IMG/VR virus record: IMGVR_UViG_3300017659_000001
Source of the DNA: a virus
Length of the DNA stretch: 53,456 nucleotides
Strand: one strand, 5' to 3'
Below are positions 3,715 to 40,317 of this stretch, piece after piece (within the stretch, counting starts at the first letter, position 1; every line of letters starts with the position of its first letter). Both the position numbers and the translations under genes were made by a program. The notes beneath the pieces are model-generated. The model saw nothing but the letters and a program-made list of their open reading frames with translations, did no database searches and was not told the DNA's origin.

Positions 3715-4103
3715 TGGCCGTCTGTACCACCTGCCTCCAACCCGGCATCACCGCCGGCGAGCACGACTGCCCCGGCCTCGGCGACATCCAGACCACCCGC
3801 AAGCTCGGCCACGGCCTCATCGTCGACACCGCCCCGCCCCGGGCCCGAATCGCGCTGTCCGTCCTCGTCGACGCCAAGTGGGGTGCACGACTGGAACGCA
3901 ACGGCCTCGTCAACATCGGCGAACAGGTCCTCTACCAGGTGACCGGCTACGACCCGGCGTCGGCCGCGCTGCTGCTCGAACTCGTCGAGGACTGGCGGCC
4001 CCAGAAGCCGGGCCCGGCCTCGGAGGCGCAGATGGAGCGGGAGATCGCCGGACGCATCACGATCACCGACACCGCATGCGGAGAGGAGGAGTCCGGTGCC
4101 TGA
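3714..4103 (+). CDS. Hypothetical protein (129 aa)
   Basis: ATG 3714 in the frame of ORF 3237..4103, overlapping the upstream stop. Confidence 0.65.
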   Translation: MAVCTTCLQPGITAGEHDCPGLGDIQTTRKLGHGLIVDTAPPRARIALSVLVDAKWGARLERNGLVNIGEQVLYQVTGYDPASAALLLELVEDWRPQKPGPASEAQMEREIAGRITITDTACGEEESGA

Positions 4104-4849: not shown

Positions 4850-5311
4850 TCACGGTGCCCACTCCTCTGCCTCGTAGCCAGGGCGGTCAGCGTACGCCGA
4901 CGCGAGCAGGCGCAGCGTCTTGCAGGGGAACTCCTGATCACAGGTGGCGCACTCGAACCCTTTCGCGTCCGGCGTGTCCCACTTGGGCCCCGGTCGCTTG
5001 TAGTGCCAGCGCACGATCTTCTGCTTGGCGTCGATCTCCCGCAGCACCCGAGCCGGATCATGCGCAGCGATGAACGCCCGGTCCGCGTCGCTCACGTGCA
5101 AGCCCCACGCGTCGTGGCCCCAGCCCGCCAGCACCTCGACAAGGTCACGACCCTCGTAGCCGTCGTGCCCCACGCGGACGAGGGTGGGCCCGTTCTGGTC
5201 CCACACGTCCGTCTCCGGGGTCCACTCCCATGGCCCCGGAGTGGCGGCCCGCGCGATCCGTTCGTCCTCGTCAAGCTGGGCCGTCAGCCACACAAGATCC
5301 ACGCCGCTCAC
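4850..5311 (-). CDS. DUF6221-like protein (153 aa)
   Basis: GTG 5311 in the frame of ORF 4850..5623, with a GTGA overlap on 5308..5595. LVWLTAQLDEDERIARAA...DPARVLREIDAKQKIV...LLASAYADRPGYEAEEW. Confidence 0.75.
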   Translation of the reverse strand: MSGVDLVWLTAQLDEDERIARAATPGPWEWTPETDVWDQNGPTLVRVGHDGYEGRDLVEVLAGWGHDAWGLHVSDADRAFIAAHDPARVLREIDAKQKIVRWHYKRPGPKWDTPDAKGFECATCDQEFPCKTLRLLASAYADRPGYEAEEWAP

Positions 5312-12067: not shown

Positions 12068-12577
12068 ATGGCCAACCCCAACCAGCACTCCCGCGACGGC
12101 CGAGGCCACTACGTCCGCACCCCCGAAAGCGCACGCCGCGACGCCCGCGCCGCCGAACTCCGCGCCGAAGGCCTGAGCTACCAGCAAATCGGCGACGAAC
12201 TCGGCATCGACAAAACCAACGCCCGCATGGCCGTACGCCGCGCCCTCCGCGAAATCGTCCAAGGCCCCGCCGAAAACCTCCTCGCCCTCCACATCGAACG
12301 CCTCGAAACCCTCTACGAGCGGGCCACGGAAGTCATGGAGCGCCAGCACGTTGTCGTCTCCTACGGACAGATCATGAAAGACGAGGACGGCAACCCACTC
12401 ATCGACTCCGGGCCCGAACTCGCCGCCATCCGCGAGGCACGCGCCACCCTCGAATCGTTCCGCAAGCTCGCCGGCCTCGACGCCCCCTCCCGCGTGAGCG
12501 TCGACGCACAGCAACTCGGCGACGAGATCGCCGCTCTCCTCAACCGCGCCACCACCGATGACGGCACCAGCGGCTGA
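12068..12577 (+). CDS. terS: Terminase small subunit (HTH)
   Basis: ATG 12068 in ORF 11444..12577. LSYQQIGDELGIDKTNARMAVRRAL. Overlaps the TerL start. Confidence 0.75.
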   Translation: MANPNQHSRDGRGHYVRTPESARRDARAAELRAEGLSYQQIGDELGIDKTNARMAVRRALREIVQGPAENLLALHIERLETLYERATEVMERQHVVVSYGQIMKDEDGNPLIDSGPELAAIREARATLESFRKLAGLDAPSRVSVDAQQLGDEIAALLNRATTDDGTSG

Positions 12578-14276: not shown

Positions 14277-16334
14277 GTGGGCAGAAGCTTCCTCGGATCC
14301 CTCGCCAACGCCGCAGGAAGCCTCCGCACCCGCGAAACCTCCACCCCCGTCCCCTTCGCCTCCCGCGCGCAGTCCTACGGCCGCGGGCTCTTCGGCAGCC
14401 AGCGCGGCACCACCGCCGAACTCGGCTCCATGGGCGCCGTCTCCACCGTCTTCGCCATCGTCAACCGCACCGCCAAGGCCGAGGCCGGCGTCGAGTGGGG
14501 CCTGTACCGCAAGGCGAAGAGCGGGAAGAAGGAAGACCGCACCCCGGTCACCGCGCACGCCGCGCTCGACCTGTGGAACCGGCCGAACGCCTTCTACACG
14601 CAGTCCGTATTCGTCGAAGCCGGGGCGCAGCACAAGCAGCTCACCGGGGAGCAGTGGTGGGTGATCGCCCGGGACGAGCGGGTGAACCTGCCGCTGGAGA
14701 TGTGGGTGGTGCGCCCGGACCGGATCCGCCCGGTGCCGGACCCGGAGCAGTTCCTGCTGGGCTACATGTACACCGGCCCGGACGGGCAGGAAGTGGCGCT
14801 CGGCAAGGACGACGTCATCTTCACGCGGACCCCGCACCCCACGGACCCGTACCGCGGCATCGGCCCGGTGCAGGCCCTCCTCACCGACCTCGACGCGGTG
14901 CGCTACTCGGCCGAGTGGAACCGGAACTTCTTCCTCAACTCGGCTGAGCCGGGCGGGATCATCGAAGTCCCTCAGGGACTCAGCGATCCCGACTTCGACC
15001 AGCTCCGCGACCGGTGGAACGAGCAGCACAAGGGCATCGCCAACGCACACCGTGTGGCGATCCTCGAACACGGCACGTGGAAAGACCGCAAGTTCACGCA
15101 GCGGGACATGCAGTTCGTCGAACTCCGCAACGTCTCCCGCGAGGTCATCCGCGAGGCGTTCGGCTTCCCGAAGCCCATGCTCGGCGCCGTCGACGACGTC
15201 AACCGCGCCAACGGCGACTCCGGCGAGCGGATGTTCGCCCGCTGGCTCGTCGTCCCCGACCTTGAAGCCGTCAAGGACGCGCTGAACAACCAGCTCCTCC
15301 CGCTGTACGGCGCCACAGCGCAGGGCCTGGAGTTCGACTTCGTCAACCCTGTCCCCGACGACGTGGCGACCGAGGCCACACAGCTGACCGCGCGGGCGAA
15401 CGCGGCGAAGGCGCTCGGCGAGACCGGCCTGTGGGACGCGGACGACATCCTCTCCGCCGTCGGCCTGCCGGAGATGCGGCGCGCAGCCGCCCCGGCCGCG
15501 CCGGCAGCGTCGTGGGATGAGGCGGTCGCCGGGCTCACCCGCGGCGCCCCGGTGCTGCGCAACGCCGCCACCGACCCCCTCGACCAGATGCAGAAGGATC
15601 ACGAGAGCGCCCTCACCGTGCTCCTCACCGACTTCGCGCCGATCACCGACGAGTGGATCGACCAGCTCGGCACACAGATCGAGCAGGCCATCGACGACGA
15701 TGACACGGCCGCCCTCGCCACGCTCACCCTCGACTCCACCCGGGCCGCCGACACCGTGCGGACCGCGCTCGGAGCAGCAGCGCAGCAGGCCGCGGACCGC
15801 ACGGTCGACGAAGCCCGCAGACAGGGCGCGACCGTGACGGCCCCGCAGGTTGCCGAGTCGCTGACCGCGCGCCTGCGCCCCGGGCAGATCGTCAACTTCG
15901 GTGACGAACTGGCCGCGATCGCCACCGCCGTCGCCACGCTCATCGCTTCCGGTCTCGCAGCGTCGGCGGCTCAGGAAGCCGTCCGCCGCTTCCTGCCCGG
16001 CGTATCCGGCTCGCACGTCGCGAACGCCGTGAAGAACACGCTGCGGACGCTGAAGAACGCGTTCCGTCGCGACCAGCTCGGCGGCGCTGTCCACCGGGCG
16101 CAGAACGTGGGCCGGATCGCCACCCTCGAAGCCGCGCCGGTCGCCCGGTGGGTGGCCAGCGAAAAAAACGACGGCAACGCCTGCGCCCCGTGCCGCGCCA
16201 TCGACGGCCACGAGTTCACGTCGCTTGCCGATGTCACGGCCGCCTACGGGGCCGGCCCGTATCACGCGTGTGAGGGCGGTATCCGCTGCCGGGGAACGGT
16301 GACGGCCTTCTGGGACACGACGGGAGACATCTGA
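14277..16334 (+). CDS. Portal protein fused to a Mu F/SPP1 gp7-like minor head domain
   Basis: ORF track, 685 aa, directly after the terminase. C-terminal NDGNACAPCRAIDGHEF...YHACEGGIRCRG is typical of MuF-like head proteins. Confidence 0.9.
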   Translation: MGRSFLGSLANAAGSLRTRETSTPVPFASRAQSYGRGLFGSQRGTTAELGSMGAVSTVFAIVNRTAKAEAGVEWGLYRKAKSGKKEDRTPVTAHAALDLWNRPNAFYTQSVFVEAGAQHKQLTGEQWWVIARDERVNLPLEMWVVRPDRIRPVPDPEQFLLGYMYTGPDGQEVALGKDDVIFTRTPHPTDPYRGIGPVQALLTDLDAVRYSAEWNRNFFLNSAEPGGIIEVPQGLSDPDFDQLRDRWNEQHKGIANAHRVAILEHGTWKDRKFTQRDMQFVELRNVSREVIREAFGFPKPMLGAVDDVNRANGDSGERMFARWLVVPDLEAVKDALNNQLLPLYGATAQGLEFDFVNPVPDDVATEATQLTARANAAKALGETGLWDADDILSAVGLPEMRRAAAPAAPAASWDEAVAGLTRGAPVLRNAATDPLDQMQKDHESALTVLLTDFAPITDEWIDQLGTQIEQAIDDDDTAALATLTLDSTRAADTVRTALGAAAQQAADRTVDEARRQGATVTAPQVAESLTARLRPGQIVNFGDELAAIATAVATLIASGLAASAAQEAVRRFLPGVSGSHVANAVKNTLRTLKNAFRRDQLGGAVHRAQNVGRIATLEAAPVARWVASEKNDGNACAPCRAIDGHEFTSLADVTAAYGAGPYHACEGGIRCRGTVTAFWDTTGDI

Positions 16335-24574: not shown

Positions 24575-24723
24575 CCCGCGCCCGGTACCTGCTCGGCCTG
24601 CTGGAGCGGTTCCCGGGCTACACCCTGTCCTCCCTGCTGGAGGAGGACACCGAGCTGATGCGCCTCGTGAAGATCGAGGAGCTTGGCGGCGCACACGACG
24701 GAGGGGAGGCGGACGATGGCTGA
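24167..24723 (+). CDS. Tail assembly chaperone G-T fusion via -1 frameshift at 24487..24493
   Basis: The -1 frame encodes ...LTRARYLLGLLERFPGYTLSSLLEEDTELMRLVKIEELG, a typical T-segment, ending at TGA 24721..24723. Confidence 0.6.
24487..24493 (+). promoter_or_regulatory. Candidate -1 slippery heptamer C_CCT_TTG
   Basis: In phase X_XXY_YYZ with the G frame. The -1 frame opens exactly here, after TGA 24484..24486, and runs to 24723. Confidence 0.55.
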
Positions 24724-32523: not shown

Positions 32524-32721
32524 GTGGCTACCTACGTGATCACAGGGAAGAGCCCGAGTGGGGAGCCGTTGGTGTCGGTGCAGGTCGCTGCGATCAATCA
32601 GGAGCAGCACGTGGTGGACGACATCGACGTGGTCGGTGCGGTCCGCGGGTTTCTGCTGGGGCTGCCTGAGGTGGGGTCGGTGGTGGCGCAGCGGTACGAG
32701 CAGGTCATCACCGTCATATGA
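32524..32721 (+). CDS. Hypothetical protein (65 aa)
   Basis: GTG 32524 in ORF 32125..32721, after GAGAGGGG. Confidence 0.5.
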   Translation: MATYVITGKSPSGEPLVSVQVAAINQEQHVVDDIDVVGAVRGFLLGLPEVGSVVAQRYEQVITVI

Positions 32722-32735
32722 GAGAGAAGGCTGAC

Positions 32736-33632
32736 ATGGCCACACCGATGACGGCCGCTCAGGTCGTCGCCCAGCTGAAGAAGTGGGGCCTCCACCATGT
32801 GGAGATCCCCGGCTGGGCTACCCACAACCGGGCCGGGCACGGCGCTTGGGGCCCGGTGAACGGGCTCATCTGGCATCACACCGGCGCCGACGTGACCGAC
32901 GCGAAGGCGTACGCCGCGGGCACCCTGTACAACGGGCTCGCCGATCTGCCCGGCCCGCTCTGCCACTTCAGCATCGGCACCGACGGCGCCGTGTACCTGG
33001 TGGGCTGGGGCCGCGCGAACCATGCCGGCGGCGGCGATCCGGCCGTTCTCGCGCATGTGGTGAACGAGGACTACGCCGGGCAGATGCACCCGACGCGCGG
33101 CAACTTGAACGGCGTCGACGGCAACAGCCACTTCTACGGGGTGGAGATCCAGTACTCCGGCTCGCACGAGATGACCGCTGCTCAGTACGTTGCGGCACGG
33201 CGGCTGTCAGCGGCGGTCCTCGACTTCCACGGCTGGTCGGAGAAGTCCGTCATTGGGCATGGCGAGTGGTCGTCGGACAAGTGGGACCCCGGCTATGCGG
33301 CCGGGAAGATCATGGCGATGCCTGTGGTGCGGGCGGATGTGAAGGCGACACGCGCGGCTGGGCCGACGGCCAGTGTCCCGACGCCGCCGAGCACGAGCGA
33401 GGAGACCGGTATGAAGCTGTCCGACGCGGTGACGGTCGGTCCGTGGGTGAAGGCTCAGTGGCCGGACGACGTGGGGTTGCAGGACGGGGCGGTGTCGGTG
33501 AACACGGCGCTCGGCTCGACGTACGGGCATGCGCGGGCTGCGCATGAAGGTGTAGATGCGCTGCGCGCGGAGGTCGTGGATCTGCGGGCCGCGCTGGCGA
33601 AGCTGACTCAGCTGCTCACGAAGGGAGCTTGA
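32736..33632 (+). CDS. Endolysin, N-acetylmuramoyl-L-alanine amidase (amidase_2/PGRP-type) with an unassigned coiled-coil C-terminus
   Basis: ORF 32718..33632. ATG 32736 follows GAGAGAAGG. Motifs WHHTG, GWGRANHAGGG, YGVEI, VIGHGEW. Confidence 0.9.
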   Translation: MATPMTAAQVVAQLKKWGLHHVEIPGWATHNRAGHGAWGPVNGLIWHHTGADVTDAKAYAAGTLYNGLADLPGPLCHFSIGTDGAVYLVGWGRANHAGGGDPAVLAHVVNEDYAGQMHPTRGNLNGVDGNSHFYGVEIQYSGSHEMTAAQYVAARRLSAAVLDFHGWSEKSVIGHGEWSSDKWDPGYAAGKIMAMPVVRADVKATRAAGPTASVPTPPSTSEETGMKLSDAVTVGPWVKAQWPDDVGLQDGAVSVNTALGSTYGHARAAHEGVDALRAEVVDLRAALAKLTQLLTKGA

Positions 33633-33844: not shown

Positions 33845-34105
33845 TTGGACGCCACCACCCTCGGCGCGATGCTCGCCTGCGTGGGCGTCGTGTCCGGTTC
33901 GGTGGTGACGTTCGTCGGCAAGCGCGGCGAGGGCCGGAACGCGTTGACGGACCAGCTGCAAGAGGAGCTGACGTCGGAGCGCGCCGAGCGTAAGGCCACG
34001 CAGGTGGAGGTCGATGTCCTGCACCAGCGCAGGCGCGATGACTTGATCAGGATCACTTTGCTGGAGATAGAGATCATTCGACTCGGAGGAACCCTGCCCC
34101 CATGA
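33845..34105 (+). CDS. TM plus coiled-coil lysis-cassette protein (86 aa)
   Basis: TTG 33845 after TAGGAGG, in the frame of ORF 33782..34105. GAMLACVGVVSGSVVTFV followed by charged heptad-like sequence. Confidence 0.55.
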   Translation: MDATTLGAMLACVGVVSGSVVTFVGKRGEGRNALTDQLQEELTSERAERKATQVEVDVLHQRRRDDLIRITLLEIEIIRLGGTLPP

Positions 34106-34785
34106 CCCGTACTGAGCGCGCGATCGTGCTGCACTGGCGCGGTCTGGCCACCTTGTGCGCGATCGTCGCTCTGTTCGGGATTGCGTGGGCGACGTGGCAT
34201 CGTCTTGATGCTGATCGGGCGGCGTCTGATCGCCGGTATGCGGCGGCGACGGCGGAGGCGGACCTGCGGGGGACGGCGGTGTCGACGTTGGCGGGGGATG
34301 TGCGGGCGCTGCGTCAGCAGATCAAGTCGCGGGGTGGGACTCCGGTTGCTCCGGATCCGACGAAGGCCGTGAACAACTTGCCGGACCGGGCTGAGGTGCC
34401 GGTGCCGATCCCAGGGCCGGCCGGACCCTCGGGATCATCGGGCCCGTCCGGGGCGCCGGGCCAGGCTGGCGCGAGCGGCCAGCCCGGACCGAGCGGCGCG
34501 CCCGGCGCGGTCGGCGCGACAGGGCCTGCTGGGGTGCAGGGAGCGACGGGCCCGCGGGGCGAGCCTGGCGCGGTCGGCCCGCAGGGCGAGCAGGGCCCGA
34601 AGGGCGACACCGGCGAGCAGGGCCCGGCTGGGGAGTCGTGTCCGGACGGGTACGGCTGGCAGGCCCCGTCGTATGACCCGGATGCGCTGGTCTGCCGCAA
34701 GGACGGGGCGCCGGATCCGGGGGACAGCGAGACGCCGCAGCCGCAGGCGGCGGGGCTGGACCCGCAACGCCGTCTGTACGTGTAG
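34102..34785 (+). CDS. Membrane-anchored collagen-like (Gly-X-Y) protein
   Basis: ORF track. N-terminal LATLCAIVALFGIAWATW, about 24 uninterrupted GXY triplets, and a Cys-containing C-terminal domain. Confidence 0.8.
   Translation: MTRTERAIVLHWRGLATLCAIVALFGIAWATWHRLDADRAASDRRYAAATAEADLRGTAVSTLAGDVRALRQQIKSRGGTPVAPDPTKAVNNLPDRAEVPVPIPGPAGPSGSSGPSGAPGQAGASGQPGPSGAPGAVGATGPAGVQGATGPRGEPGAVGPQGEQGPKGDTGEQGPAGESCPDGYGWQAPSYDPDALVCRKDGAPDPGDSETPQPQAAGLDPQRRLYV
34414..34629 (+). repeat. Coding Gly-X-Y triplet repeat (about 24 units)
   Basis: GPAGPSGSSGPSGAPGQAGASGQPGPSGAPGAVGATGPAGVQGATGPRGEPGAVGPQGEQGPKGDTGEQGPA. Confidence 0.9.
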
Positions 34786-34867
34786 AGGGGAGGTGAGGCC
34801 GATGCTGGACGTGCTCGTGCAGATCGTCGTGTCCCTGTCGCTCTGTCTCTGAACGGCGCCATGCTGC

Positions 34868-34891
34868 GGCCCCGCACTTCGGTGCGGGGCC
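34868..34891. terminator. Bidirectional hairpin (10-bp perfect stem, ttcg loop)
   Basis: ggccccgcac-ttcg-gtgcggggcc, read directly. Confidence 0.65.
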
Positions 34892-34900
34892 TCGGTACGT

Positions 34901-35086
34901 CTACGCGGCTTCGACGATCTCGGCGCGTACGGCGGCCGCCCACTCCACCACCAGGTGCTCGTACTCGGCGCGCTCCGCTGGCGTCGTCGGCCGCCCGCCA
35001 ACGCGCTGCCACAGCGAGCGGATCGCATCGTTGATCTCGCCAGCAGACCGTACGGAACCAGGAGCACGGTCGGGTGTGGGGGGCAT
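34901..35086 (-). CDS. Possible small protein (61 aa), divergent from 35188
   Basis: ORF track. No clear Shine-Dalgarno sequence. Confidence 0.4.
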   Translation of the reverse strand: MPPTPDRAPGSVRSAGEINDAIRSLWQRVGGRPTTPAERAEYEHLVVEWAAAVRAEIVEAA

Positions 35087-35093
35087 GCGTCAA

Positions 35094-35113
35094 GTCTACG
35101 GACCCCGTAGGAC
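35094..35113. promoter_or_regulatory. GTCTAC-N7-GTAGGAC motif in a divergent promoter region
   Basis: Read directly. It shares the heptamer with 36390..36417. Confidence 0.4.
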
Positions 35114-35187
35114 GAGCCATACCCCTCCGCATACGCCACCCGCCAGCAGTACCGTGGACGCACAAACACCTTCTGGCGGGGGTACAC

Positions 35188-36393
35188 ATGAACGTTTCCA
35201 TCGGCGACCGCATCCGCAGCCTGCGCGAGTTCCGCGACCTCACACAGGAAGAACTCGCAGCCCGGGCCGGAGTCCACGTCGACACCATCCGCAAGCTCGA
35301 GCAGGGCCAACGCCAGTCAGCGCGCATCAACACCCTCCGCGCCCTCGCACGCGCCCTCGATGTCCAGCTCGAGCGCCTGGTAGGACAGCCCACCGTGACG
35401 CAGCAACTCGCAGACGACGGCGGCCTGATCGCGCTCCGCGACGCCATCCAGGACATCGGCGCCCTCCCCGGCGTCCCCACCGGTGACGACCTCGAGGACC
35501 CGCCCGACGAGCAGGCGTGGACCGACAGCGTCCGCGAAGCCACCACCACGTACTGGCACGGCGACTACTCGCGGCTCTCCGGCAGCCTGCCGCTCCTGCT
35601 GCGTGACGGCCGCGCGGTCGCACGGCAGACCCCGACCGAGCGCGTGTGGCGGCAACTCGCCCTCGCCTACCAGCTTGCCGCCTGCCTCAGCACGCAGTCC
35701 GGGCACCCGGACTGGGCGTTCGCCGCTGTCGAGAAGCAGCTCGCCGCGGCCGCCCGGGCCTCGGATCCGCTGATGGAGGGCATGGGCGTGTCCACCCTGT
35801 CGTGGGTGCTACTCAGGCAGGGCCGGTGGGAGCAGGCGCAAGACGTGGCCGTGCGGAAGGCGGACTCGCTCGAGCCCAGCTTCCGTCGGTCGACGCCGGC
35901 GCAGCTCGCCGTGTACGGCAACCTGCTGGTCGCTGCGGCGACGCCGGCCGCCCGCCGGGACGAGCGTGACGAGGCCATACAGCTTTTGACCGCGGCGGAG
36001 GCGGCGGCGGTCCGCTCGGGCCCGGTGCGGTCGTACGGGACGGCGTTCAGCGTGGTCGACGTGCGTACCCAGAAGGTGAACATCGCCCTCGCGGGGAGCG
36101 ACAACCGGCCCGATGAGGCGCTGAGGTTCTCGAGCGACGTGGTCCTCGGGGACATCACCAGGCCGGTGCACTCGGCTGCGTATCGAGTGGATGTGGCGCA
36201 GGCGCAGTACCAGACGGGCGACAGTGACGGCGCGCTGGCGACGCTCCTCGAGGTCGAGCACGATCAGCCGGAGTGGATCCGTTTTCAGACGCTGGCGGCG
36301 GCGACGGTGCGGGAGATGCTGGAGACGGAGCGCCGTCGCAGTACTCCGTTGCGGTCTCTGGCTGCGCGGCTGGGTGTGGATCCGACGCTGTAG
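35188..36393 (+). CDS. XRE HTH regulator with a ~330-aa helical (TPR-like?) C-terminal domain (401 aa)
   Basis: ATG 35188 in ORF 35074..36393. HTH LTQEELAARAGVHVDTIRKLEQGQ. The remainder is Ala/Leu/Arg-rich with no catalytic motif. Confidence 0.85.
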   Translation: MNVSIGDRIRSLREFRDLTQEELAARAGVHVDTIRKLEQGQRQSARINTLRALARALDVQLERLVGQPTVTQQLADDGGLIALRDAIQDIGALPGVPTGDDLEDPPDEQAWTDSVREATTTYWHGDYSRLSGSLPLLLRDGRAVARQTPTERVWRQLALAYQLAACLSTQSGHPDWAFAAVEKQLAAAARASDPLMEGMGVSTLSWVLLRQGRWEQAQDVAVRKADSLEPSFRRSTPAQLAVYGNLLVAAATPAARRDERDEAIQLLTAAEAAAVRSGPVRSYGTAFSVVDVRTQKVNIALAGSDNRPDEALRFSSDVVLGDITRPVHSAAYRVDVAQAQYQTGDSDGALATLLEVEHDQPEWIRFQTLAAATVREMLETERRRSTPLRSLAARLGVDPTL

Positions 36394-36417
36394 GACGGGT
36401 AGGACAACGCGTCCTAC
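36390..36417. promoter_or_regulatory. GTAGGAC-gg-GTAGGAC-aacgc-GTCCTAC: direct plus inverted heptamers overlapping the stop codon of 35188..36393
   Basis: Read directly. The perfect 7-bp palindrome arms lie at 36399..36405 and 36411..36417. Confidence 0.5.
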
Positions 36418-36566
36418 GTGGGGGAGAATTGACGGTGCGACTGGTGGCTTACGTCACTGGGCTGTGACGGTCTACGCACCTAGCGTGATCGTCATGAGCG
36501 GCGTCGGCCCGTACCCCCGCCAGGAGTTGGGCCGGCGCCGCACCACCCACAGCCCGGGAGCGAGAC

Positions 36567-36914
36567 GTGAGCGCGCAGTCGGACACAGACGCCAGCACCC
36601 GCAGCGAGGCGCTCGCCATACTCACGCTGCCCGCCATCGACAGGCTGACCGAACGGCAGGTCCGCGGCATCACCTGCATCTGGGACGTGCGGCATCCCCT
36701 CCATGCGGCTATCGCTGTCGACCTCGGGGTGCGGGAGGCGTCCCGTGCGGGCGCGCCGGTCACCTGGTATCCGCGGGCGTGCCGTTCGTGCGTGCATCTC
36801 GCCGCGTACGCCACGCTCCAGACGCATGCCGTCAACCGCGAAGAGTGTCCTGGGGATGTCGAGGCGTGCGAGACGTGCCGCGCGCTGCTGCGGTTGCTGC
36901 GGGAGACCCGATGA
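36567..36914 (+). CDS. Cys-rich protein (115 aa)
   Basis: ORF track. GGGAG upstream. Third codon positions are mostly G/C in this frame. CRSC...CPGDVEACETC. Confidence 0.6.
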   Translation: MSAQSDTDASTRSEALAILTLPAIDRLTERQVRGITCIWDVRHPLHAAIAVDLGVREASRAGAPVTWYPRACRSCVHLAAYATLQTHAVNREECPGDVEACETCRALLRLLRETR

Positions 36915-37081
36915 TGTGCGTGCGCTGCGACCAGCCCATCGCCAAGGGGCAGGTCATGGTCGTGGATGTGGAGCGTCCGACGGGGGCGGGGCTGACGGTC
37001 TACGTCCACCGGATCCTGTGCAAGCCGCTGTTGGTTCAGACGTCCCCCGAGCCGAGGCCGAGGCGGATCCGGGGGAGGTGA
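36911..37081 (+). CDS. Cys-containing small protein (56 aa)
   Basis: ATG 36911 (ATGA overlap) in the frame of ORF 36191..37081. MMCVRCDQP...HRILC. Confidence 0.5.
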   Translation: MMCVRCDQPIAKGQVMVVDVERPTGAGLTVYVHRILCKPLLVQTSPEPRPRRIRGR

Positions 37082-37270
37082 GCGGCCGCCCCCTCCCCTG
37101 GGGGGTGGCTTCCGCCGCCAGCGCCCGCCCCAGGCGCCGGCGGCGGGCCTTGGCCAGAGGGCGACGGCGGGTGAGATGTTCACACTTCACACAAAGTTTC
37201 CGTGGATATATGCAGGCCGCACCCTTCCTGTTACCCACGGTTCCCGTGTTGACTGCCATTCAGTAAGCGC

Positions 37271-37507
37271 TCACCGAAGGAGGTCGGCCGGATGCACCCC
37301 GAGGACGTGGGCGATCCGCAGGAGTGTGGAGATGCGGGCGTCGCGGTCGCCGTGCTCGATGTCCTGGAAGGCGTTGCGGCTGACGCGGGCGGCGAGGAAC
37401 ACGCTTTCCTGGGTGCGGTTCTGGCGGATCCGTTCGACGCGGATGCGGTCGCCGATGGCGCGTCGGCGTTCTTGCAGCCAGGCGTCGTCATCGGGGAGGT
37501 GGGGCAC
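37271..37507 (-). CDS. XRE-family HTH protein (78 aa)
   Basis: ORF track. RTQESVFLAARVSRNAFQDIEHG. Confidence 0.8.
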   Translation of the reverse strand: MPHLPDDDAWLQERRRAIGDRIRVERIRQNRTQESVFLAARVSRNAFQDIEHGDRDARISTLLRIAHVLGVHPADLLR

Positions 37508-37647
37508 CCATCGACACTCGATGCCAGTTGATCTTTAGTCAGCCCTGTAAACCGGGCATTCTTTGATCTTGCTCAGACTCGGCGTGCGCCCAGACCCCGC
37601 TCACGTCGTCACGGCCGAGGGACTCAGTGCGACCCTCTGCCGCCCCT

Positions 37648-37674
37648 CGCCCCGGCTGCGCCCCAGCCGGGGCG
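37648..37674 (-). terminator. GC hairpin (11-bp perfect stem, 5-nt loop)
   Basis: cgccccggctg-cgccc-cagccggggcg, read directly. Confidence 0.5.
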
Positions 37675-37686
37675 GGGGGTTATAGG

Positions 37687-37715
37687 AACCCCCGGCATCT
37701 CCCTCGCCGGGGGTT
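37687..37715 (-). terminator. GC hairpin (10-bp perfect stem, 9-nt loop)
   Basis: aacccccggc-atctccctc-gccgggggtt, read directly. Confidence 0.5.
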
Positions 37716-37722
37716 CGTCGCG

Positions 37723-37739
37723 TTCCGGAATCCTTCCGC
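37723..37739. repeat. Degenerate copy (16/17) of the attP-region direct repeat
   Basis: ttccggAatccttccgc versus ttccggGatccttccgc. Confidence 0.7.
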
Positions 37740-37749
37740 TCAGGCTGCG

Positions 37750-37771
37750 GGATTCCGGGATCCTTCCGCCC
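37750..37771. repeat. 22-bp direct repeat, copy 1 (ggattccgggatccttccgccc)
   Basis: Identical to 37939..37960. Confidence 0.9.
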
Positions 37772-37790
37772 AACACCGGAAGACGTTGCA

Positions 37791-37799
37791 ACGCAACGA
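37791..37799. promoter_or_regulatory. ACGCAACGA, the reverse complement of the TCGTTGCGT 9-mer found twice upstream of the cro-like gene
   Basis: Read directly. It sits inside the palindromic context gttgcaacgcaacg. Confidence 0.4.
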
Positions 37800-37820
37800 A
37801 ACGCATTGAACGCACCTGTC

Positions 37821-37916
37821 GTGCAGGTCAGCGACCACCCAAGGCCACGACCTCGCCACCCGTCACCCCGCAAGAACATTCAATACTGACTACACAGATC
37901 ATGTTCTGACCTGCAC
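37821..37916. repeat. 10-bp inverted repeat GTGCAGGTCA...TGACCTGCAC flanking a 76-bp AT-richer segment. TCTGACCTGC also occurs directly at 37905 and 37927.
   Basis: Read directly. Confidence 0.8.
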
Positions 37917-39143
37917 TCAACGCCCCTCTGACCTGCCCGGATTCCGGGATCCTTCCGCCCCGCCAGAAAGATTCCCCGCCGCAGCCCACGCCGCATCGAG
38001 CACCGACCGCGTCTTCTCCTCCGCCTCAGCGAACAGATGGGCGTAGATCCGCAGCGTCGTCAGGATGTCCTTGTGCCCGAGCCGCTTCTGCACGACCTTC
38101 GGGTTCTCGCCGCCCGAGATGAGCACCGACGCGTAGTGGTGACGCAACTCGTGCCAGTGCCGCGCGGCCACACCGGCCTTCCGGCAGACGCCCTTGAGCG
38201 CCGCGTCCATCGTCGACTCGGACACCGACCGCCCGTCCGGCATCGTGAAGACCAGCCCGGCCCACTCGCCGCCCGCCGGAGGCGGATACTTCGCCAGATG
38301 CGCGGCCAGGAGATCGACGGCCCGCTGCGTCAACGGCAGCGTGCGACGGCCGGCGCCGGTCTTCAGCTTGTCGAGGTACTTCCCCCGGCCGGGCTCGTAC
38401 ACAAGCTGCTCGTGGACATGCAGCATCTTGCGCAGAAAATCCACCTGTCCCACCCTGAGCCCGCGCAGCTCACCCGACCGCAGGCCCGTCAGCGCGGTCA
38501 GCTCGATCATCGCCGCCCACCGCTCGTGGTACGCGTGCGCGATGAGCTCGGTCACCTCGGCGATGTCCGGCGGGTGGACGGTGGACTGTGTCTGTGCGGG
38601 CGCACGGATCCCGGCGAACGGCGAGATGGGGATGACCCGGTCGACGACAGCCAGCTTGAACACCGACCGCACGTACCGGGCCACGAGGTTGGGGGTGCCG
38701 CCACCGAGCCCGTACTTGCTCGACAGCAGCTTCTGCCAGGCGCCGGCCTCGCTCGGCTTGATCGACCGCATCTGCCGTGTGCCCCACTCGGGGATGAGGT
38801 AGCGGTTCAGGTAGCCGCGGTACTCGCGCTCGGTCCGGCCGATGACGCCCTGTGCGGGTAGCCACGTCTTCAGGGCGAACGCTTCGACGGTGACCTTTCC
38901 GGCTTCGGGGTCCAGCCAGGATCCGTCGAGCTTGGAGCCTTCCTGCTTCGTGATCTCCTTCTCGGCCTCGGCCTGCGTCCGCCACAGCGACGTGCGTTCC
39001 TTGCCGTCGGGGCCGTCGTACCGGGCCTGCCACCGCTTGCCCTGCCCGTGGACCGACGAGGCGACCTTGCCCTTGTGCTCCCCGCACTCGGGGTCGCCAG
39101 CGTTCGGCCTGGTCTTGTGCCAGCGGTCAGCTACGTAGCCCAT
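37917..39143 (-). CDS. int: Tyrosine integrase
   Basis: ORF track, 408 aa. Catalytic box HELRHHYASVLI...LGHKDILTTLRIYAHL. Confidence 0.95.
   Translation of the reverse strand: MGYVADRWHKTRPNAGDPECGEHKGKVASSVHGQGKRWQARYDGPDGKERTSLWRTQAEAEKEITKQEGSKLDGSWLDPEAGKVTVEAFALKTWLPAQGVIGRTEREYRGYLNRYLIPEWGTRQMRSIKPSEAGAWQKLLSSKYGLGGGTPNLVARYVRSVFKLAVVDRVIPISPFAGIRAPAQTQSTVHPPDIAEVTELIAHAYHERWAAMIELTALTGLRSGELRGLRVGQVDFLRKMLHVHEQLVYEPGRGKYLDKLKTGAGRRTLPLTQRAVDLLAAHLAKYPPPAGGEWAGLVFTMPDGRSVSESTMDAALKGVCRKAGVAARHWHELRHHYASVLISGGENPKVVQKRLGHKDILTTLRIYAHLFAEAEEKTRSVLDAAWAAAGNLSGGAEGSRNPGRSEGR
37939..37960. repeat. 22-bp direct repeat, copy 2, inside the 3' end of int
   Basis: Identical to 37750..37771. 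Confidence 0.9.
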
Positions 39144-39415: not shown

Positions 39416-39871
39416 CTAACCGTTTCTGTTCAATCCGTTTAGTTGTGCACCATCCGTCTCGGACAGGAACCCGTGACGACGCAGATCGTCCATCGCGATC
39501 TCCACGGCTTTACGGATCTCGACGGCCGTCGCGTTGTTCGTCGCACGCACCATCGCGTTGGTGAGGATCGACTGCACCTGCTCGTCCTCGATGTCGGCCC
39601 GTACGTCCTGCCAGCCGCCCGGTGGTTCCCCGCCGGCGAGTACCGAGTCGACGGCGCCAGCGGGCCAGCCGAGCGCCTGGGCGACGGCCGCGAGGGTGTA
39701 GGGCATGCGCGCCTTGGGCACCTTGCCCGCTTCAGCGTCTTGGACGCTCTTGGTCGAGACGCCCGCCTTCTTCGCGAGTTCGTCCTGAGTCAGCCCTTGC
39801 CGCTCCCTGCTTTCTCGTAGGGCCCTGCCGAGGCGGGCCCATGTATCTGGGTCTCTGTTGATGCTGCTCAC
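39416..39871 (-). CDS. CI-like repressor (XRE HTH, 151 aa)
   Basis: GTG 39871 after GAAGGGG, in ORF 39416..40003. LTQDELAKKAGVSTKSVQDAEAG. Divergent from the cro-like gene. Confidence 0.8.
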   Translation of the reverse strand: MSSINRDPDTWARLGRALRESRERQGLTQDELAKKAGVSTKSVQDAEAGKVPKARMPYTLAAVAQALGWPAGAVDSVLAGGEPPGGWQDVRADIEDEQVQSILTNAMVRATNNATAVEIRKAVEIAMDDLRRHGFLSETDGAQLNGLNRNG

Positions 39872-40006
39872 GAAGCGCCCCTTCGTGGGTCCAAGCCAGT
39901 CAACGACCGGCAACAACAGGCAACAGAGTAGAGGCGTCAACCCCCCAACAACACTCGGGAACGCGCCATCTCCGCATGTCAGACGCTCGCCACGGATTAA
40001 CACTGC

Positions 40007-40015
40007 TCGTTGCGT
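40007..40015. promoter_or_regulatory. TCGTTGCGT operator-like 9-mer, copy 1
   Basis: Read directly, 44 nt upstream of ATG 40051. Confidence 0.45.
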
Positions 40016-40029
40016 TGCATCAACTCGCT

Positions 40030-40038
40030 TCGTTGCGT
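40030..40038. promoter_or_regulatory. TCGTTGCGT operator-like 9-mer, copy 2
   Basis: Read directly, 21 nt upstream of ATG 40051 and 23 bp from copy 1. Confidence 0.45.
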
Positions 40039-40050
40039 ATCGTTACCGCC

Positions 40051-40317
40051 ATGCAAGTCGATGGACCAAGAATCCGCCGACGGCGCGAACGCAGCGGTCT
40101 AGGCCTGCGCGCATTCGCGGGAACCGTCGGCATCTCACCCAGCCACCTCTCGCGGATCGAACGCGGGCTGCGCGCCCCGCAGCCCGAGATCCTCGCCGCG
40201 ATTGCTGAGGGGCTGGCCTGCCCGATCGAGCAGCTCGAAGGAGCACACAGCGATGAGCGAGACGAGCACAGCCTCGCCGTACATGACCACGAAGGAATTC
40301 GCGGCCCACGTCCGTAA
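40051..40317 (+). CDS. Cro-like XRE HTH protein (88 aa)
   Basis: ATG 40051 in ORF 39976..40317. LGLRAFAGTVGISPSHLSRIERG. Confidence 0.7.
   Translation: MQVDGPRIRRRRERSGLGLRAFAGTVGISPSHLSRIERGLRAPQPEILAAIAEGLACPIEQLEGAHSDERDEHSLAVHDHEGIRGPRP

Follow-up and report, generated by a model that had tools for sequence, protein, structure and literature searches.

A predicted regulator, operator and leader RNA cassette in Streptomyces prophages and chromosomal islets

The gene at 35188..36393 (plus strand) of the virus record IMGVR_UViG_3300017659_000001 encodes a 401-residue protein, here called REG, which combines an XRE-type helix-turn-helix (HTH) with a tetratricopeptide repeat (TPR) superhelix. 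The whole stretch of 53,456 nucleotides was analysed and is referred to as the window; it represents the genome of a temperate siphovirus-type Streptomyces phage with ~70% G+C. The reading that is favoured here, at a probability of about 0.5, is that positions ~35150..36566 form a compact regulatory cassette, mobile among prophages and chromosomal islets of Streptomyces, and that REG, a palindromic operator behind its gene and a structured leader RNA ahead of a variable cargo gene would be coupled by feedback. New here is the predicted, conserved leader RNA of ~100 nucleotides between operator and cargo, a loop of which is complementary to the ribosome-binding site of REG; the REG family itself was already known from actinophages as phrog_5823. 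An earlier interpretation of the same DNA made from its letters alone (the sequence-only reading) had taken REG for a possible peptide- or ligand-sensing receptor of the RNPP/AimR type that might control the lysis-lysogeny decision, and had overlooked the leader RNA.

The loci compared comprised 33 genomic, 14 IMG/VR and several metagenomic loci, the scan of metagenomes having added only 9. Every locus shows DNA-level conservation over the 170 nucleotides from the stop codon of REG to the next gene, and this stretch diverges less than the third codon positions of REG. It contains an element at 36457..36557 (plus strand) which RNAalifold folds into a three-way junction, with P1 (36457-36466 paired with 36548-36557) enclosing P2 (36466-36493) and P3 (36498-36541). 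Minimum free energy folds of the window and of a second locus give the identical junction with z-scores of -4.1 and -4.8. Counted over 45 distinct sequences, 86.7% of the cells of the model are paired, as against 28-54% in controls with slid partners, and 16 pairs show double changes compared with 9.1 in shuffles. P3 is paired in 97.5% of cells with 8 of its 12 pairs covarying, and P1 in ~88% with 3 covarying pairs; counts of G.U versus A.C assign both to the plus strand. P1 ends at the first G's of the Shine-Dalgarno (SD) sequence of the cargo gene (36556-36560). A covariance model of the leader gives a single match in each locus, located 3' of REG throughout, and none elsewhere in the window; it has no match in R4 or Attoomi. 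Nor did an Rfam cmscan over 34800..37950, with E up to 10, return a match in 36394..36566. The leader is a hitherto undescribed structured RNA, predicted from conservation and covariation and absent from Rfam, and it is the most distinctive feature of the locus.

A further inverted repeat, HP1 (GCGAC-N11-GTCAC, 36437..36457), lies just 5' of the junction and its assignment is tentative. Its loop (ACTGGTG) is nearly invariant, and HP1 may serve as a binding site for a protein or belong to an antisense transcript. A kissing interaction of the HP1 loop (CUGGUGG) with the P3 loop was considered and discarded, since three G-to-A changes in HP1 are uncompensated and HP1 is poorly paired on the plus strand.

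The apical loop of P3, GTACCCCCGCCAGGAGTT (36511..36528, plus strand), is 18 nucleotides long, conserved in sequence and predicted to act as an anti-SD sequence for REG. It is complementary to CTTCTGGCGGGGGTAC at 35170..35185 (plus strand), the 5'-untranslated and SD region of REG, which ends 3 nucleotides 5' of the ATG. The decamer CCCCCGCCAG occurs in the window only at these two places. The duplex in the window comprises 16 contiguous pairs at -37 kcal/mol, and none of 2000 shuffled loops did as well. Among 40 distinct loci 34 reach -20 kcal/mol or stronger, the duplex usually ranks among the best 0-3% of random windows from its own locus, and cognate pairs of loop and SD beat non-cognate ones in all but 20 of 100000 permutations. 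Changes on one side are in several cases matched on the other: UCCUCUGG is met by CCAGAGGA in L053 and L046, GUCA pairs with UGAC in L016, and L068, a 68% relative, pairs CCGG with CCGG and carries a double change from U-A to C-G. An interaction between the P3 loop and the SD of REG is likely but not established.

The second conserved element is the palindrome GTAGGAC-AACGC-GTCCTAC at 36399..36417, which the sequence-only reading had described together with a direct copy of GTAGGAC over the stop codon (36390..36396) and had linked to REG; both sites are present in the sequence, and the comparison of loci supports the link for the palindrome. In exact form TAGGAC-N5-GTCCTA occurs 42 times in the loci fetched, once per locus and always directly 3' of the REG stop, with a family consensus of G-TAGGAC-AACAC-GTCCTA-G, and in several loci the half-site begins with the TAG stop codon of REG. 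Even a search that tolerates 2 mismatches finds no second copy of the full palindrome in the window. Its arms are conserved at 88-100% and most of its spacer at 84-88%. Deviations in the arms are mostly one-sided, with 34 disagreements against 4 double (compensatory) changes, and together with the conserved spacer this is what a site bound by protein, rather than an RNA stem, would show. Relatives with only 39-68% identity (L063, L064, L065, L068) have the same site in the same place, and one with 39% (L066) has no TAGGAC site after the stop codon.

The strongest link between protein and site is their co-variation. In 44 of 46 close orthologs helix 3 reads DT(I/V)RKLEQ and the arms are TAGGAC, and the other two are the only ones with other arms: L001 has RTLEQ in helix 3 and the right arm CCCACCAG, and L043 has KVLER and the site GGTGGTAC-N5-CCACCAC. 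The same is seen further out in L067, a 52% relative with QKLEQ and TCGGAC-N5-GTCCGA, and every RKLEQ protein with a readable site has TAGGAC arms. Since altered arms go only with an altered recognition helix, the palindrome very probably serves as the operator of REG.

Other copies of the half-site are less uniform. GTAGGAC occurs 7 times in the window where 3.4 would be expected, and five of the seven lie within 1.3 kb (35107..36417), which is more than chance would give; one of them, in the coding sequence of REG (35380..35386, plus strand), had escaped the sequence-only reading. The direct copy over the stop codon (plus strand) belongs to a 9-bp duplication present in a few loci only. The arrangement GTCTAC-N7-GTAGGAC (35094..35113), formerly placed in a divergent promoter, is present in the sequence but conserved in none of 32 orthologous loci; it is specific to the window and probably not functional. 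The internal copy uses the rare A-ending codons GTA GGA and is kept in ~70% of loci while nearby synonymous sites vary, and a V-to-L change in five loci retains CTA GGA. It sits 9 nucleotides 5' of a conserved in-frame GTG/ATG at codon 70, in the linker between HTH and TPR (35380-35397), and synonymous diversity over codons 61-93 shows a mild dip only. These features could be those of an internal ribosome-binding site and start for a TPR-only isoform lacking the HTH. That this TAGGAC (35381) might be a further, third half-site of the operator is not supported, as it is unchanged in L043, where the operator has changed.

As regards the protein itself, the open reading frame is real, an identical protein (P0001) being present in public assemblies, and the XRE HTH is confirmed by Pfam (HTH_3 at residues 9-63, E 6.6e-13; HTH_31 at 1e-11). 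The HTH occupies residues 5-64 and the TPR superhelix approximately residues 108-394, where Pfam gives only sub-threshold TPR matches. By sequence the HTH matches C.AhdI, HigA2 and SinR in the PDB, in agreement with the Cro/C1 HTH assigned by Pfam, and the PDB sequence search found no similarity of REG to any entry beyond the HTH; NCBIfam models of the Sco1979 type also match only there. An AlphaFold2 model built with an alignment of 113 diverse relatives has a predicted local distance difference test (pLDDT) score of 93.7 and a predicted template modelling (pTM) score of 0.89 at full length, with low confidence in linker residues 60-80, and the C-terminal 307 residues modelled alone reach a pLDDT of 96.5. 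As had been supposed from its composition, the C-terminal part is helical over ~300 residues, save for one small beta-hairpin.

Foldseek searches of these models against the PDB, which had been suggested as a check on the C-terminal domain, placed the confidently modelled superhelix in the TPR fold class. At full length the top match is ComR (6hu8, E 4.8e-5; also 5juf, 6qer and 5jub), with generic TPR domains below it and phi3T Rap and PrgX further down the list. With the sensor domain by itself as the query, generic TPRs (KLC1, BtubC, LGN) have the best E-values, at ~1e-3, and the best superpositions are on phi3T Rap (TM 0.58-0.61, root-mean-square deviation 4.5-4.9 A) and an APC/C subunit; Rap thus has the best TM, and generic TPRs are its equal by E-value. 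AimR is not among the top 50 matches of either the full-length protein or the C-terminal domain, and a fold search of BFVD gave nothing informative. The proposed resemblance to RNPP/AimR-type receptors therefore holds for the architecture, since the best full-length matches are ComR-type RRNPP receptors and PrgX and Rap are also matched. The fold E-values run from 1e-3 to 5e-5 and TM from 0.3 to 0.6, with no sequence match beyond the HTH. It is a fair statement that the modelled architecture of REG is RRNPP-like and its fold class TPR, the match being at the level of fold class only and not implying RRNPP descent.

The sequence-only reading knew of no such protein in actinophages. This does not survive the comparison with PHROG, in which phrog_5823 is a full-length match to REG (E 5e-117, residues 1-397 on positions 3-402 of a profile of 404), and homologs of ~30% identity are found in 55 phage records, including R4 (gp52), phiHau3 and phiELB20, where they are annotated as 'transcriptional regulator'. 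At E<1e-30 the wider family comprises 129 clusters (50% identity). Copies 77-90% identical to REG occur in hundreds of Streptomyces genomes. No published study of the family was found in the literature, and a megablast of the region against phage records gave no match.

In the orthologous loci with recognisable neighbours the REG gene lies 3' of the lysis genes and close to the prophage end, as it does in the window, where its position between the endolysin gene (32718..33632) and the integrase gene (37917..39143) is as first described. Between loci REG is 71-89% identical and its neighbours less so (endolysin 39-45%, a divergent 61-residue open reading frame 42-61%, the Cys-rich downstream gene 35-48%), with flanking phage genes overall at 35-60%. 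Many REG loci show no phage genes, and in one locus with gene calls the cassette is surrounded by ordinary genes of the chromosome and has no phage-like gene within 10 kb. In some loci a second, paralogous XRE regulator of ~400 residues lies immediately upstream of the cassette (L019 3900-5168; L065 1-896).

The gene behind the leader varies from locus to locus. About half encode a Cys-rich protein of ~100 residues without known family, as does the first cargo gene of the window (36567..36914, plus strand, 115 residues, family unassigned), whose SD GGGAG at 36556-36560 abuts P1. Other loci have a protein of ~150 residues of another unknown family (the 'RWL' cargo), DUF6415 or HATPase_c_2. No cargo protein matches the PADLOC defence families or toxin families, and searches of the Cys-rich and 'RWL' cargo with Pfam and PADLOC assigned no function. 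A constant regulator, varied cargo, a single operator, a separate CI/Cro pair and the presence of the cassette outside prophages together point to control of the cargo at the locus, and local control of accessory cargo is more likely than an arbitrium-like lysis-lysogeny switch.

A hydrophobic micro-ORF of 12 codons at 36429..36467 (plus strand) had been put forward as a possible peptide gene. It is not a gene; the stretch corresponds to HP1 and the 5' strand of P1. It diverges almost evenly at all three codon positions (0.22/0.20/0.19, where the REG gene has 0.14/0.11/0.33), and of 30 loci 8 have lost its start codon and 3 carry a premature stop. Where the frame stays open, in about half of the loci, the reason is simply the conservation of the DNA and its lack of indels. 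No conserved small open reading frame or propeptide gene stands beside REG among the compared loci, the divergent 61-residue frame being present in only about one third, and with the micro-ORF non-coding the cognate propeptide gene, the defining feature of RRNPP systems, is therefore missing from the cassette.

Conservation upstream of REG starts ~45 nucleotides before the ATG in an alignment of 32 loci, and the flanks further out are unrelated. Within it stands a -10-like hexamer at 35150..35155 (plus strand), TACCGT or in some loci TAGCGT, which is recognised as a sequence motif only. A second possible -10 box, TAGCGT at 36481..36486 (plus strand), lies inside P2, is invariant and is found 7 nucleotides 5' of a conserved CA(T)G; in R4 and Attoomi a TAnnnT stands six nucleotides 5' of the ATG of the corresponding genes. 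A scan of the region with consensus models gave no promoter and no terminator. A leaderless upstream reading frame or N-terminal extension from the ATG at 36494 finds no support: the ATG follows TAGCGT in 19 of 45 loci, and the frame with the cargo is kept in 10 of the 19 where one third is expected, an excess that is not significant. An in-frame ATG near 36481-36496 would give the cargo an Arg-rich extension of 22-25 residues encoded by the P3 hairpin.

The mechanism that is proposed from these elements is as follows. REG would act as a one-component regulator. Its XRE HTH, presumably as a dimer, would bind the 19-bp palindrome adjoining the stop codon of the REG gene, and the TPR superhelix would be the module for a ligand, either a peptide or a protein. 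Operator-bound REG would gate transcription, from the REG gene or from a local promoter, into leader and cargo; the position of the operator at the junction of REG gene and leader inclines us to repression or a roadblock. The leader transcript would fold as the three-way junction, with P1 ending at the SD of the cargo and the loop of P3 free to pair with the SD of REG. Given this complementarity, an RNA bearing the leader could mask the ribosome-binding site of REG, either within a read-through transcript (in cis) or in trans, and such masking would create feedback between expression of the cargo and synthesis of REG.

Several observations weigh against this model. Both the DNA binding and the RNA pairing are inferences from sequence. 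The complementarity of loop and SD is no better than background in ~15% of loci and is interrupted in L063 and L067, and cognate pairs surpass non-cognate ones by only 1.2 kcal/mol, a small margin among sequences related by descent. P2 (79% paired) and HP1 (69%) are weakly supported, HP1 pairs better as a minus-strand RNA (84% vs 69%), and two relatives of 39-41% identity retain the operator with no recognisable P3. No promoter could be assigned, the candidates AGGACA-N17-GAGAAT, TTGACG and TAGCGT being undistinguished, and the TAGCGT in P2 could give rise to a shorter transcript lacking P1 and P2. The fold matches of the modelled TPR domain are generic at E of about 1e-3, and the ligand is only postulated.

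It is possible, though we consider it unlikely, that the cassette is the control module of a prophage 'moron' with a defence, exclusion or toxin-like function, REG being an XRE repressor or antitoxin-like regulator whose TPR domain serves oligomerisation or contacts a phage or host protein. The location beside the prophage end, the constant regulator with variable cargo and the retention of the cassette in islets after loss of the phage would all fit, as would an HTH like those of the control proteins of defence systems (capH, C proteins) and the HATPase_c_2 and DUF6415 cargo, which recall gene sets associated with XRE regulators in Streptomyces. However, the cargo lacks a match to PADLOC defence or toxin families, and this explanation leaves the RNA element unaccounted for; it overlaps the cassette model, from which it differs only in the role of the TPR domain. 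Rather more doubtful is an extension in which the cassette is a mobile sensory switch, with REG an RRNPP-like receptor for a conserved host-derived or diffusible signal, the anti-SD RNA feeding back on the receptor and any cargo attached. That REG is a true receptor of the RRNPP or arbitrium type, through which a secreted and re-imported peptide sets lysis or lysogeny, is very unlikely. The combination of HTH and TPR, with ComR as the best full-length match in the PDB and phi3T Rap as the best TM for the sensor domain, speaks for it, as does the place of the gene in the island at the prophage end between lysis genes and integrase. Yet no conserved small reading frame accompanies REG, neither the micro-ORF nor the 61-residue frame qualifying and the upstream flanks being unrelated; the single operator faces variable cargo and not lytic or lysogenic genes; a separate CI/Cro-like pair adjoins the integrase; the cassette also occurs in a chromosomal islet devoid of phage genes; and the surveys of RRNPP systems consulted place the family in Firmicutes, with Actinobacteria not mentioned among the hosts. 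The lysis-lysogeny role suggested by the sequence-only reading is weakened on most of the same grounds, and by the leader RNA.

Two further explanations dispense with regulation by the RNA. The palindrome and P3 might be only terminators or stabilising hairpins of the REG mRNA and the match between loop and SD a coincidence of G+C-rich sequence. Both elements do follow the REG stop codon, the 13-bp G+C stem of P3 is strong, and the symmetrical change in the palindrome arms of L067 would be compatible with an RNA stem too. Against this, neither element is followed by a T-run and the scan found no terminator; most changes in the palindrome arms affect one side only, the spacer has been preserved, and the arm sequences vary in step with the recognition helix. 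An 18-nucleotide conserved loop is unlike that of a terminator, P1 encloses P2 and P3, and no shuffled loop attained the observed duplex energy, so that this account is scarcely probable. Least probable of all is that the complementary stretches of 16-19 nucleotides (35167-35185 and 36511-36529) are inverted repeats acting as DNA, either as the ends of a mobile cassette or as a looping site. They do flank the REG gene, and mobile ends would account for the much higher conservation of REG relative to its flanks and for the many contexts in which the cassette occurs. But conservation runs ~25 nucleotides past the left repeat and ~35 past the right, no recombinase or target duplication was seen, and the right repeat is the loop of a covarying stem, as expected for RNA.

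A comparison with known systems shows where the cassette stands. REG and the RRNPP(A) regulators (ComR, Rgg, PlcR, PrgX, AimR) are alike in having an N-terminal XRE-type HTH and a TPR-like superhelix of ~300 residues, a palindromic operator (predicted in the case of REG) beside the receptor gene and facing the regulated gene, and carriage by phages or mobile elements, as for AimR and phi3T Rap. They differ in that REG has no cognate propeptide gene and instead an RNA with an anti-SD loop at the downstream position, and in that its host is actinobacterial, its sequence similarity is confined to the HTH and its TPR matches are generic. Compared with arbitrium (AimR-AimP-AimX), the cassette has no aimP-like reading frame, its downstream genes vary and it occurs without phage.

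R4 gp52 and other members of phrog_5823 belong to one family with REG over the full length (~30% identity) and are likewise carried by temperate Streptomyces phages. Their annotation goes no further than 'transcriptional regulator' or 'DNA binding protein', and the records give no function for gp52. Like REG, R4 gp52 has a short repeated site, GTGGTAC, directly after its stop and an inverted copy in the promoter region. Unlike REG it is divergent from the integrase gene, lacks the TAGGAC palindrome and gives no match to the leader RNA model. In R4 (L036) the GTGGTAC sites are at 3880-3905 and 5183-5189, with a promoter-region palindrome GTACCACT-N6-AGTGGTAT, and the half-site resembles the variant operator of L043.

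Two other actinobacterial systems bear comparison. RNAs of the 6C type form a stable hairpin with a C-rich loop that is complementary to a G-rich ribosome-binding site and masks the SD, and P3 shares with them the complementarity of a C-rich loop to a G-rich ribosome-binding site. The leader differs in having no Rfam match, in that the hairpin belongs to a predicted three-way junction, of which it forms one arm, ahead of a neighbouring gene, and in that its target would be the mRNA of the adjacent regulator. The WhiJ-type XRE regulators of Streptomyces are ~280 residues long with another C-terminal domain and are accompanied by small partner proteins and HATPase_c_2 neighbours. REG resembles them in combining an XRE HTH with small uncharacterised neighbours, including HATPase_c_2 or DUF6415 cargo in some loci, and differs in its TPR C-terminal domain.

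The remainder of the window is that of a temperate phage, with the large terminase at 12558, the portal at 14277 and the tape measure at 24683. A collagen-like fibre protein of 227 residues (34102..34785), identified by Pfam collagen triple-helix repeats and by PHROG as a collagen-like minor tail or tail fibre protein, is encoded 3' of the endolysin and holin-like genes and outside the tail gene block. The divergent 61-residue reading frame (34901..35086, minus strand) lies outside the conserved cassette. Downstream of the Cys-rich cargo gene, and overlapping its end by 4 nucleotides, is a Cys-containing frame of 56 residues (MMCVRCDQ..., 36911-37081) which is 41-49% identical across several loci and has no known family. 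It is followed by a stand-alone HTH protein of 78 residues (37271-37507, minus strand), whose HTH is ~40% identical to that of REG and matches the N-terminus of phrog_5823. This gene adjoins the probable attP region (37510-37916), a lower-G+C, non-coding stretch between it and the integrase with a strong hairpin at 37636-37686 and short GGATTCCGGGATCCTTCCGC-like direct repeats; no tRNA gene was found in the window. The tyrosine integrase (minus strand) is next to the CI-like/Cro-like HTH pair (39416..40317), both members of which also match the N-terminus of the phrog_5823 profile.

If the cassette model is correct, Streptomyces prophages and chromosomal islets share a portable unit of sensor, operator and leader RNA that drives uncharacterised accessory genes, and this unit would offer an entry point to the lysogen-expressed genes of temperate actinophages. 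It would also provide a candidate ligand-responsive regulator with a defined 19-bp operator that might be turned into a genetic tool for Streptomyces, a new structured RNA motif with an anti-SD mechanism, and a test case for the existence beyond the Firmicutes of RRNPP-type HTH-TPR receptors, whether or not they use peptides. Were the more doubtful reading of the cassette as a sensory switch to prove true, REG would be the first RRNPP-like signalling receptor outside the Firmicutes and would form, with its leader RNA, a module of mutual feedback between protein and RNA.

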